IMG/VR virus record: IMGVR_UViG_2703718786_000008
Origin: a virus
Taxonomy: Duplodnaviria > Heunggongvirae > Uroviricota > Caudoviricetes
DNA: 28,315 nt
Direction: 5' to 3' (one strand)
Shown here: positions 1 to 3,000 of the stretch, one piece after another
Position numbering within the stretch: position 1 is the stretch's first letter
Layout: each line of letters opens with the position of its first letter
Program-made: the position numbers

Positions 1-3000
1 GCGTATGGCGTTGAGATAGAAAGTCTGGTGCTGGAGATAAATGCACCGGCAGCATAATAAAAAAAGAGCCAGCGACTGACCTGAAAGAAGACGCTGGCTA
101 AAAGGCCTTATATGTTTGTAGAGACTTATTTTTCACAGACAGCAATGATGCCTGTCAATATATTATCAATATGCGGATTGTTTCAGTTACAGATGCTTTA
201 TTAAGGAAAAAAACAGCCAGCACTGACTTTCGGTGGAGAGGTGCTGGCTCAGAAGGATAGTTGGATTTCACATGATACTTATGCCTGGCGGTATATTTTC
301 TGACAGACAGTGACGGGTGTTGTCAAGATATTGTGTCATTTATAACCTGAATCAGGGGGTGGCCGGAATGTTATCTGGCATTTTTAGCAGAGCCTGAATG
401 CCATAATCACGGCTCCCGGAGTTGGCCGTCAGTGGGTGACACTGGCGGCTTTTTTGTTTTTCTTTACTTTCATTTTCTGTCGGCGGTGACGGAGACATAC
501 ATCAGATGGAAAAAATCACAACAGGTGTGTCATACACCACGTCAGCGGTGGGGACGGGATACTGGTTACTGCAGCTGCTGGACAAAGTCTCTCCGTCCCA
601 GTGGGTGGCGATAGGTGTGCTGGGGAGTCTGCTGTTTGGCCTGCTGACGTATCTGACTAACCTGTATTTCAAAATCAGAGAGGACCGTCGTAAGGCGGCG
701 CGGGGAGAGTAAAGCGATGAAGAAAAAATACGAACTGGTTGTTAAAGGGATAAATAATTACCCGGATAAGATTACTGTTACTGTGGCACCGGAAATTGGT
801 GGGTATCCGTCACTGTTGTTGCCAGATGTGGCGATTAGTCTTGACCGTACTGAAGGAGCCACGCTGGAGTTTTACGAAGCTGAGGCGAAAAAGCAGGCGA
901 AGCAGTTTTTCATGGATGTTGCTGCCGGGTTATGTGAAGGGGATGGTCCGTTGCCGGAAAAGCGGCCCATCATTTTAGAGGCGCAGGACGTGTTGATAAC
1001 CTACAGAGGAAAGCTACCGGGAAGAATTACTGGTTCTCTGAAGACGCCACCGACGGCATTGCGGTCAGAAAAAGATGATATTGAATCACGTATTGAACAA
1101 CTGGAGTGCTATATCTCTGAATTGAAAAAAGCACCCCAACAAAAGATGAGGTACTTGCATTAGACGAAATGAAAGAAACTATTCTTGATCTTGCGGCGCG
1201 TCTAAGCTGCGCTTCACGGTCGAAAGAGCATTTTCAGCAGCCCTGAGGAATCTTTTATCATCACGAGCATCGGTCTTTGGTATTTCTTTAATGAGATGTT
1301 CCATTTCGGCGATCAGGTAATCTGACACAGCGTTATTCTTACCAAGTGCATCCATGGCTTTGATTATCTTTGGGAGAAGAAAACCGACCTGTAACTCAAG
1401 AGTGAAAATTCTGTCAAAAAGCGCTGTATTTTCTTCATTCATATCTGTTCATTATCTTTGCGAGGCAGCCATCTCACATTGTTGGGTTTACGCCAGTGCC
1501 CACCACCGGCGGGCTGAAGACTTAACATATCCAGGGGTCCGGAACCGATAAATCCTGATAAATATCCATGAACGCAAAAATCAGATACGGCCTGTCGGCT
1601 GCCGTTCTGGCGCTGATTGGTGCAGGGACGTCTGCGCCTGAAATCCTCGACCAGTTTCTTGACGAAAAAGAAGGTAACCACACCACGGCATACCGTGATG
1701 GTGCGGGGATCTGGACCATCTGCCGCGGTGCCACCCGAGTGGATGGTAAGCCTGTCGTCCCGGGTATGAAGTTATCGAAGGAAAAGTGCGACCAGGTTAA
1801 CGCCATTGAACGTGATAAGGCGCTGGAGTGGGTGGAGCGCAATATTAAAGTACCGCTGACCGAACCCCAGAAGGCGGGTATCGCGTCATTTTGTCCTTAT
1901 AACATTGGCCCCGGTAAGTGTTTCCCGTCTACGTTTTACAGACGGATTAATGCAGGTGATCGAAAAGGTGCCTGCGAAGCGATTCGCTGGTGGATTAAGG
2001 ACGGTGGCAGAGACTGCCGTATCCGCTCAAATAATTGCTACGGTCAGGTATCCCGGCGAGACCAGGAAAGTGCACTGGCGTGCTGGGGAATTGACAGATA
2101 AGCAGAATATTTTGCTGAAAAATGACGTTGGCCAACGCGGGCGGATAACACGAAATCCTGCGAACTGGCAAAAACTAAGTGAATAAAAGTAAAACCCCGT
2201 TTGTTGGCCGCAAACGGGGTTTTGTGTTTCTGACCTTGAGTAAGGCAAGGGAGAACATGGGAAAGTATAAACGAATTCTGTTGAGATTGACTATGAAAAA
2301 CGGCCTTGAACTGAAAGCGCCTGTAACTGATGACGTCAGCAGAGCGCTGGCTTTTGCTATTAAGTGGGTGGCGGTCGGTATTGCTGTGTCTCCGATGCTG
2401 TATGGGCTGGCAAAACTGGTCATTGCGTTGAAATCGTGAAGAGGATTAAGCATGTCAGACAAGCTCATAACGCTGGCGAAGATCCTCTGTGTAATCGTCG
2501 GCATTTCATTTTCACTAATGCTGGTTGCTATTTGCTTTTCCACTGCCTGGCGCGTCTTAACTTTGTCATGGCTGGTGGGGTGAGGGGGATATGAACCGTG
2601 TTCTGTGTGTGGTGATTATTGTCCTGCTGGTAGCCTGTGGTGTGCTTAGTCTGGGGCTGAATCATTACCGCGATAACGCCATTACCTACAAAGCGCAACG
2701 CGATAAAAAAGCCAGTGAGCTGAAGCTGGCGAACGTGACAATTACTGATATGCAGGTACGCCAGCGTGATGTCGCTGCACTTGATGCCAGATACTCGAGG
2801 GAATTAGCCGATGCGAGAGCTGAAAATGAAACTCTGCGTGCTGATGTTGCCGCTGGTCGTAAGCGCCTGCGCATCAACGCCAACTGTCCAGGCTCCTTGC
2901 GTAAAGCCCCCATCACCTCCGGCGTGGATAATGCAACCGGTCCCCGACTGGCAGAAGCCGCTGAACGGGATTATTTCATCCTCAGAGAACGGCTGATGGC

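Follow-up and report, generated by a model that had tools for sequence, protein, structure and literature searches.

A 28,315-nucleotide (nt) stretch of a tailed virus genome (Caudoviricetes; IMG/VR record IMGVR_UViG_2703718786_000008), hereafter called the window, carries two convergent genes between the holin gene (S) and the lysozyme gene (R) of its lysis cassette. We read this interval as a Hendrix-type moron module made of two convergent accessory genes, ydfR in the late sense and an independent antisense unit encoding a protein of 87 amino acids (aa), and give this reading a probability of about 60%. The module itself is otherwise mostly ordinary; the part worth following is the leader in front of the 87-aa gene, which is shared by many unrelated small genes in other viral genomes.

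The definition of a moron was taken from the literature (PMC3594210). Genes that are neighbours in related phages are here separated by extra DNA: the reverse gene is absent from cassettes of the H-19B type, and its DNA was found in 44 of 5426 Escherichia coli genomes. A terminator of its own is predicted for the reverse gene (positions 1156–1119, minus strand), and the base composition differs, with a guanine-cytosine (GC) content of 42.4% in the 87-aa gene and 38% in the adjoining tail of the DUF1327 (YdfR-family) frame versus 53–54% in the genes for the holin, R, and Rz. With its lower GC content, its terminator, and its absence from related cassettes, the interval therefore falls within the published definition.

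Two convergent genes between holin and lysozyme

As the original prediction stated, an open reading frame (ORF) of 148 aa on the plus strand and one of 87 aa on the minus strand lie convergently between the holin and lysozyme genes. The class II holin of the phage 21 type is encoded at 506–712 (+; PF04971, 8.8e-33; phrog_9876, holin), and the 148-aa ORF (717–1163, +) starts 4 nt past the holin stop codon. The 87-aa ORF follows at 1179–1442 (−), with the two stop codons 15 nt apart, and a 125-nt spacer (1443–1567) separates its start from that of R, which encodes a lysozyme of the signal-arrest-release (SAR) endolysin type (1568–2101, +; PF00959, 1.9e-25; phrog_7). The S-R interval measures 855 bp, and Rz (2591–3058) lies downstream of R. 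Positions 400–2200, used as a 1.8-kb query, were 100% identical to E. coli strain 377323_2f, and the window begins in the late region of a lambdoid prophage.

The 148-aa protein had been suspected to belong to a DUF1327/YdfR-like family, and the Pfam search bore this out. PF07041 matched residues 1–112 with 152.7 bits against a cut-off of 25 (E 3.2e-45), the RefSeq name of the gene is "YdfR family protein", and identity to the 211-aa PhiR5_1 protein was 84%. Alignment to the 176-aa form of the protein showed that an A-run at 1125–1130 (+), read on the opposite strand as the T-run in the terminator of the reverse gene, has six residues in the window versus seven in relatives. Because this 1-nt deletion shifts the frame, the ORF consists of residues 1–137 followed by 11 out-of-frame residues. 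The 148-aa frame is not the native product; it is a frameshift-shortened form of the 176-aa protein, and an intact full-length DUF1327 frame, judged against the 176-aa and 211-aa forms, was not found in the window. The PGAP annotation of ydfR in the identical E. coli chromosome is likewise a pseudogene. The intact 176-aa form overlaps the reverse gene by 68 nt, and lengths in the DUF1327 family range from ~100 to 329 aa.

In an AlphaFold (AF2) model of the 148-aa protein, residues 1–73 formed a beta-beta-beta-alpha core with a predicted local distance difference test (pLDDT) score of 68–88 by block, residues 74–117 were disordered, and residues 118–138 formed a helix. The sole functional account for the DUF1327 family is a report on K-12 YdfR, according to which the protein uses its first 72 residues to bind the catalytic N-terminal half of RNase E and co-purifies RNA (PMC13232886). 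The modelled fold weakly resembles a double-stranded RNA-binding domain; the resemblance fits that report and is no evidence for it.

The order S-ydfR-R is routine in E. coli prophages. The S-R query matched 4398 of 5426 complete E. coli genomes, and in 26 of 30 genomes sampled by picking rows evenly down the ranking, the matched stretch carried a YdfR or DUF1327 annotation. Deposited phage records included 427 with this holin type and 101 with DUF1327. The two genes had been put forward as a novel insertion, and this novelty falls away for the 148-aa protein, which is ordinary because it is a common component between S and R. The possibility that the 87-aa ORF is spurious was, in turn, removed: it is a real gene, because it is conserved and under purifying selection. 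The Nei-Gojobori ratio of nonsynonymous to synonymous substitution rates (dN/dS) was 0.14–0.23 when the window gene was compared with its CharmingMan and Citrobacter counterparts and with the common 91-aa allele of E. coli, and 0.11 when the CharmingMan and Citrobacter alleles were compared with each other.

The 87-aa protein was matched end to end by phrog_18136 (9.5e-55), and its homologs had 26–68% identity. A word-indexed protein search gave 30 clusters, almost all of E. coli origin, and in addition one Citrobacter protein at 68% identity, and an exhaustive profile search with the family found 9 representative clusters among 1.84 billion (1.84e9) proteins. Among deposited phages, DNA of the gene was present in one, CharmingMan, at 68% nucleotide identity, and a scan of genome contigs for the family gave no confirmed locus. 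The protein is acidic (12 K+R, 16 D+E, net charge −4). Its AF2 model is a three-helix fold of low confidence (pLDDT 64.6), and the protein is described here as the predicted cytoplasmic, all-helical cargo of the antisense cassette. It had no match in Pfam, NCBIfam, or PADLOC, and none in a profile search of PDB sequences. When the defence and toxin-antitoxin (TA) profiles of PADLOC, Pfam, and NCBIfam were searched, the 87-aa protein had no match and the DUF1327 protein had a single one below threshold (E 0.03). A structure-based function was dropped, as Foldseek against PDB gave nothing below E = 2 with a model of this pLDDT. The window gene has 12 nt (four codons) deleted at the N-terminus.

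Signals and mobility of the antisense unit

The original prediction placed a separate promoter for the reverse gene in the spacer at 1443–1567. Transcription signals of its own do appear to be present there, in that the gene is accompanied into unrelated contexts by a −10-like box, which is conserved, and by its structured leader. The −10-like TATGTT (1529–1524, −) is a TAnnnT box conserved upstream of UCAGCC, and a 17-nt spacer separates it from a weak −35-like TTTATC (1552–1547, −). This promoter-like region (1524–1552, −) overlaps the stretch immediately before the R start codon. Reading CCCTGG...GC as a sigma-54 promoter was dropped after inspection by eye, the spacing being wrong and the GC absent in the window.

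The structured 5′ leader occupies 1443–1519 on the minus strand and is supported by conservation across contexts and by hairpin covariation. It comprises the 5′ element UCAGCC (1517–1512), a hairpin of 8 bp (arms 1511–1504 and 1498–1491), a second hairpin (GUGAG 1477–1473 with CUCGC 1464–1460) within which the GAUGGCUG element lies (1473–1466), and the Shine-Dalgarno (SD) position (1453–1449), where the window has AAUGA versus AAGGA in relatives. Across contexts, the shared upstream block reads TAnnnT, ~7 nt, UCAGCCCG, the 8-bp hairpin, GA(G/U)GGAUGGCUG..., AAGGA, and ATG, and similarity reaches ~60 nt beyond it. The SD and ATG are kept at a fixed distance from the leader. At the other end of the unit, the predicted intrinsic terminator (1156–1119, −) consists of 10 pairs and a T-run, all of it inside the DUF1327 ORF at its 3′ end.

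In an alignment of 10 sequences, 96% of the cells of the 8-bp hairpin paired, double changes occurred at four of the eight pairs, and none of 500 shuffles reached the observed score. With 52 non-redundant leaders among the matches listed, pairing was 97.6% and compensatory changes were found at seven of the eight pairs. The wobbles are G.U solely on the sense strand of the gene, which therefore argues for RNA structure in the mRNA rather than a DNA palindrome. The complementarity UCAGCC:GGCUGA varied solely by U.G in the 52 leaders, the 3′ side being fixed by how the sequences were selected; it is therefore compatible with a candidate pseudoknot. GGCUGA has two possible pairing partners, and a helix GAGG:CCUC adjoins the SD; these two features suggest that translation may be controlled through the leader.

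A covariance model was built on the 52 leaders, the window copy included, and scored the window leader at 59.8 bits, as expected by construction. No other credible leader copy was found when the window was scanned with it. A second candidate at 16594–16678 (−; 14.7 bits, E 0.019), situated inside the tape-measure ORF with no downstream ORF, was judged to be a chance match. Rfam 15 gave no match at E ≤ 1 in positions 1–4500 of the window or in five loci with canonical leaders.

The 87-aa gene family occurs in several genomic contexts and is antisense to the late operon in each. In E. coli, the gene lies between DUF1327 and R; in Citrobacter, just upstream of the holin gene; in CharmingMan and the group of locus L030, after the lysis cassette and a glycosyltransferase-like gene; in loci L017 and L018, between the lysis genes and terminase; and in L045 and L047, upstream of a holin gene. 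The module has definite boundaries, and its upstream element and downstream terminator accompany the family in CharmingMan, Citrobacter, L017, L016, L045, and L047. A homologous hairpin with a T-run is found 3′ of the gene in CharmingMan and Citrobacter, where DUF1327 is absent. Judging from these comparisons, the 87-aa gene with its −10-like box, leader, and terminator is a self-contained unit that has moved into four other genomic contexts.

In every context, an open frame lies opposite the 3′ end of the 87-aa gene and encodes a similar C-terminal peptide, which in E. coli is the tail of the long form of DUF1327. A conserved overlapping peptide ("B") antisense to this 3′ end was considered and was rejected for the overlap and terminator part. 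Frame B has no third-position bias outside the overlap, and inside it changes cluster at codon position 2 of B; this is consistent with selection on the 87-aa frame alone and argues against independent selection on the B frame. It follows that the DUF1327 tail beyond approximately residue 137 is read-through into the cassette, and the frameshift in the window merely shortens this tail.

A shared head in front of unrelated small genes

The signals upstream of the 87-aa gene belong to a more widespread element of ~150 nt, called the head here, which consists of a late-direction terminator, a promoter-like box, UCAGCC with the covarying hairpin, and a near-invariant GAGGGAUGGCUGAUUACCUC element adjoining the SD. 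The GAGGGAUGGCUGAUUACCUC element can pair back to UCAGCC as a candidate pseudoknot. IMG/VR was scanned for exact occurrences of AGGGATGGCTGNTNACYTC, which yielded at least 120 stretches (loci L049–L168), and the head is present in more than 120 viral contigs. Among the matches listed, the full head architecture was seen at 112 of 121 sites, with 84 unique leaders and 80 unique downstream ORFs, and in 80 of 81 unique heads a TAnnnT box preceded UCAGCC by 12–13 nt. Further copies of the head were located at 5001–5153 in L169, 2501–2655 in L170, and 2501–2654 in L171.

The downstream ORFs formed at least 19 unrelated BLASTP clusters, mostly of 63–105 aa with a few of ~170–226 aa. Nine representatives, from the nine largest clusters plus the DUF6602 cluster, were checked against Pfam, which recognized solely DUF1883, DUF6602, and a sub-threshold Lar-like zinc ribbon. 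The cassettes listed run almost always antisense to their flanking late genes, the nearest ORF having the opposite orientation in 70 of 72 cases 3′ of the cassette and in 58 of 72 cases 5′ of it.

The canonical head was found in HK022, HK633, mEp213, mEp043, ES18, SPN3UB, and others. The HK022 copy stands ahead of gp23 ("srb protein; moron gene product"); this gene and gp22 ("moron gene product") converge in the interval separating I-like from J-like tail genes. The ES18 copy stands ahead of gp25 ("possible moron"), and here the convergent gene is gp24, which encodes a DUF1327 protein; the pair lies between tail genes M and L. The leader model scored the heads of HK022 gp23 and ES18 gp25 at 90 and 77 bits, respectively. 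ES18 gp24 had 33% identity to the DUF1327 protein of the window over 67 aa (E 7.5e-8), and ES18 gp25 aligned weakly to the 87-aa protein (E 0.004). The convergent genes of the window are therefore one instance of a recurring pair that is untied to lysis.

These locations bear on whether the insert regulates lysis, through its timing, anti-holin-like action, or the S:R ratio, as the original prediction had proposed. The position between S and R would suit such a role, as would the DUF1327 start 4 nt behind S and the tendency of the small-gene family to lie within a few kb of lysis genes, and antisense transcription could in principle damp leaky expression of R. However, a transmembrane (TM)-grade segment was sought in both proteins and none was found (maximum KD19 hydropathy 1.3 and 0.89), and neither a TM domain nor obligatory linkage to a holin, the marks of a holin or antiholin, was seen: relatives of the 87-aa protein and the homologous ES18 pair occur outside the S-R junction and away from holins. 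Head-bearing cassettes sit between lambda-like tail genes as well as near lysis genes, and the same head precedes cargo genes in the H/M, M/L, and I/J intervals. Moreover, most cassettes of this holin type function in the absence of the small gene, and DUF1327 is missing from about three quarters of the phage records with this holin. A coupling to lysis timing or anti-holin action is thus left unsupported, and we regard it as very unlikely. Since ydfR is standard at the S-R junction of E. coli prophages and the reverse small gene is a textbook moron, the finding gives no indication of a new lysis regulator.

The late-sense partners of the cassettes are themselves conserved in part. Among the matches listed, a convergent late-sense ORF ending −110 to +80 nt from the cargo stop was present in 65 of 75 cassettes, and 23 unique partner ORFs started with MTLEQRVEALEK behind an SD (e.g., L068, L081, L114). 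Entropy in these MTLEQRVEALEK ORFs was 0.59, 0.35, and 1.13 at codon positions 1, 2, and 3, a coding-type pattern. Many other cassettes thus have late-sense partners with a conserved, coding-type N-terminus and variable C-termini, some of which are DUF1327-like; by eye, several contain the DUF1327-like TLEGYxQRAKEHA helix. In L016 (21% identity) and L045, too, the small gene is faced by a remote DUF1327-like gene. A late-sense partner ORF was also noted in Citrobacter (L007, ~6191–6391, −).

Such pairing would be expected if the two genes were functionally coupled, the small protein being expressed in the lysogen as a defence, exclusion, or growth-modulating factor and neutralised or redirected upon induction by its late DUF1327 partner. 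The logic would be that of self-immunity or of a TA-like pair, with the 3′ overlap reinforcing the switch. Besides the 65 of 75 leader-sharing cassettes with a convergent ORF and the 23 coding-type MTLEQRVEALEK partners, the convergent and often overlapping arrangement of a small gene with DUF1327 or a DUF1327-like gene recurs in E. coli, L016, L045, and ES18 gp24/gp25, and the binding of K-12 YdfR to RNase E with co-purifying RNA (PMC13232886) makes regulatory activity plausible. Against this, the small gene stands without an adjacent DUF1327 domain in Citrobacter, CharmingMan, L030, and L047, ydfR mostly occurs without the small gene, the part of DUF1327 that overlaps the 87-aa family gene shows no sign of independent selection, and neither a TA nor a defence-system profile was matched in the searches given above. 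Because each gene often occurs without the other, we consider a coupled pair unlikely, and the moron reading, with two accessory genes side by side, is preferred.

Neither the motif nor HK022 "srb" turned up in a literature search by exact motif string and keyword, which did not extend to Juhala 2000 and Casjens 2005. The head is apparently undescribed. We tentatively propose, at somewhat less than even odds, that it is an undescribed cis-regulatory RNA/promoter module which, together with the MTLEQRVEALEK partner, marks exchangeable antisense cassettes that place hypervariable small proteins under common control in the late operons of HK022, ES18, and lambda-like phages. If so, temperate enterobacterial phages would possess an integron-like or PeSL-like system of accessory genes. 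If the leader acts as a common control device, it would account for how prophage accessory genes of an entire class are expressed, and the list of cargo genes would serve to catalogue candidate proteins for lysogen benefit or exclusion.

Origin, proposed working, and comparison with known systems

In H-19B, S, ydfR, and R are arranged within 400 bp, and YdfR of this type has 114 aa and ends ...TPPLA. H-19B (L003, ~2640–2711) nevertheless keeps the antisense promoter-like block and GTCTTCAGGCCAGCGGTGG, fused directly to ydfR sequence, and this relic includes the 5′ arm of the leader hairpin. Comparison with the window identified two copies of CCACCG on the plus strand, the left one at 1047–1052 and the right one at 1503–1508, inside the 5′ arm of the leader hairpin. 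Each adjoins a copy of CTGAAGAC (window 1038–1052 and 1503–1521), and deleting the DNA between the CCACCG copies reproduces the ydfR-R junction of H-19B. From these junctions, the 114-aa allele is best read as a deletion derivative of the long arrangement and not as the ancestral form, because the retained piece is leader, which also accompanies the gene where ydfR is missing. As a relic carrier, the short ydfR would tie many prophage lysis regions to one ancestral arrangement.

PhiR5_1 (L002, 3797–4057, −; 86 aa) and Esc31 (L006, 2025–2297, −; 90 aa) also have a reverse gene and a hairpin behind this promoter-like block upstream of R. A shared family for these reverse genes was rejected, as no similarity was found. 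That unrelated genes stand behind one and the same block suggests that cargo has been replaced at a fixed slot. Cassettes may have been shuffled by recombination at the head.

The H-19B relic, which retains the promoter-like region and the 5′ end of the leader without any ORF, would also suit a unit that acts as antisense RNA and pairs with the late mRNA across the 3′ end of ydfR, as lambda oop does with cII, the protein being irrelevant. The strongly structured leader and the convergent 68-nt 3′ overlap in the intact allele agree with this idea. It is, however, the least probable of the accounts considered. The ORF is under purifying selection across contexts in which the antisense partner differs, a conserved SD and ATG keep a fixed spacing from the leader, and the cargo ORFs behind the leader, diverse as they are, are always open (63–226 aa among the matches listed).

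Under the moron reading, ydfR would follow the holin gene directly on the Q-dependent late transcript and be translated from it, its frameshift-shortened 3′ end in the window running into the terminator of the reverse gene. The reverse gene would be driven by a weak sigma-70-like promoter overlapping the upstream region of R, from which a transcript is predicted to start at approximately UCAGCC. This transcript would carry the leader, with the 5′ hairpin and the GAUGGCUG element beside the ribosome-binding site, followed by the sequence for the 87-aa protein and the Rho-independent terminator. The protein is probably made from the repressed prophage. Upon Q-antiterminated late transcription, convergent read-through would switch its gene off, and the conserved leader may set the translation or stability of its transcript. 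The 87-aa protein is most likely a lysogen-benefit or exclusion-type protein-binding factor and not a lysis component.

Several points weigh against this reading. A generic sigma-70 scan did not call the promoter site of the window (7 of 12 matches, with 9 of 12 needed), so we infer its activity from conservation. The searches assigned no function at all to the 87-aa protein. The window copy looks degraded, given its AAUGA SD, the N-terminal deletion, the frameshifted DUF1327, and the pseudogene neighbours, and both genes may therefore be non-functional here. Finally, the small gene is repeatedly paired with DUF1327-like genes, and the functional link that this suggests has no explanation in a plain moron model.

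Upstream of the window, the same prophage contains RefSeq pseudogenes (L001, 2964–3326 and 3806–5658), namely a TerB-like gene with an internal stop and a frameshifted DUF6645/SASA gene. With several pseudogenes, the shortened ydfR among them, the prophage may be decaying.

Other features were noted downstream in the late region. Two small ORFs lie between R and Rz (2179–2439, +, and 2452–2583, +) and match phrog_1115 and phrog_4906, neither of which has a known function. Both have hydrophobic stretches, and neither belongs to the canonical phage 21 cassette. Just 3′ of R, at 2191–2223, there is a strong GC-rich hairpin of 13 bp with A/T runs on both sides (AAAACCCCGTTTGCGGCCAACAAACGGGGTTTT), which looks like a putative terminator inside the late operon. 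Between Rz and terminase, a PerC-family regulator gene (3524–3838, +) and a small YlcI/YnfO-family gene (3920–4144, −) were found, both labels being those of the annotation of the identical E. coli chromosome; these two genes are further moron-like inserts.

Reverse-oriented and convergent units are known in lambda. The bor gene is reverse-oriented beside the lysis genes, is expressed from the prophage, and encodes a lipoprotein with a serum-resistance role, and oop is a short non-coding convergent transcript that overlaps the 3′ end of cII. The window unit is similar to these in orientation and overlap and shares neither sequence nor leader with either. On the plus strand, the closest characterized counterpart is K-12 YdfR of the Qin prophage (P76160), which has the same N-terminal domain and likewise adjoins a prophage lysozyme gene. 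Its RNase E-binding residues (the first 72) are those of the modelled folded core of the window protein. The window protein has a coiled-coil extension (148 aa, from 176 aa), whereas K-12 YdfR has 103 aa and no extension.

The head can be compared with the PeSL motifs of T4-like phages, in which a promoter and stem-loop flank variable small genes and are possible recombination points for shuffling cassettes (Comeau et al. 2014, PMC4122927). The two are alike in having conserved promoter and stem-loop elements beside variable small genes. They differ in that the PeSL motifs belong to another phage group and share no sequence similarity with the head, which is antisense to the late operon of a temperate phage and has a long leader on a translated gene.

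The closest likeness is to the morons HK022 gp22/gp23 and ES18 gp24/gp25. The copy in the window occupies the S-R junction of a phage 21-type cassette, whereas the HK022 and ES18 morons are found among tail genes; its cargo is a separate, very small family (phrog_18136); and its leader has diverged, with GAGAUGGCUGCCUCGC in place of GAGGGAUGGCUGAUUACCUC. All three nevertheless consist of extra DNA between late genes with a promoter-like region, a terminator, and a lower GC content, and in all three the reverse gene is directed against the late operon behind the same head, as in front of HK022 gp23 and ES18 gp25.

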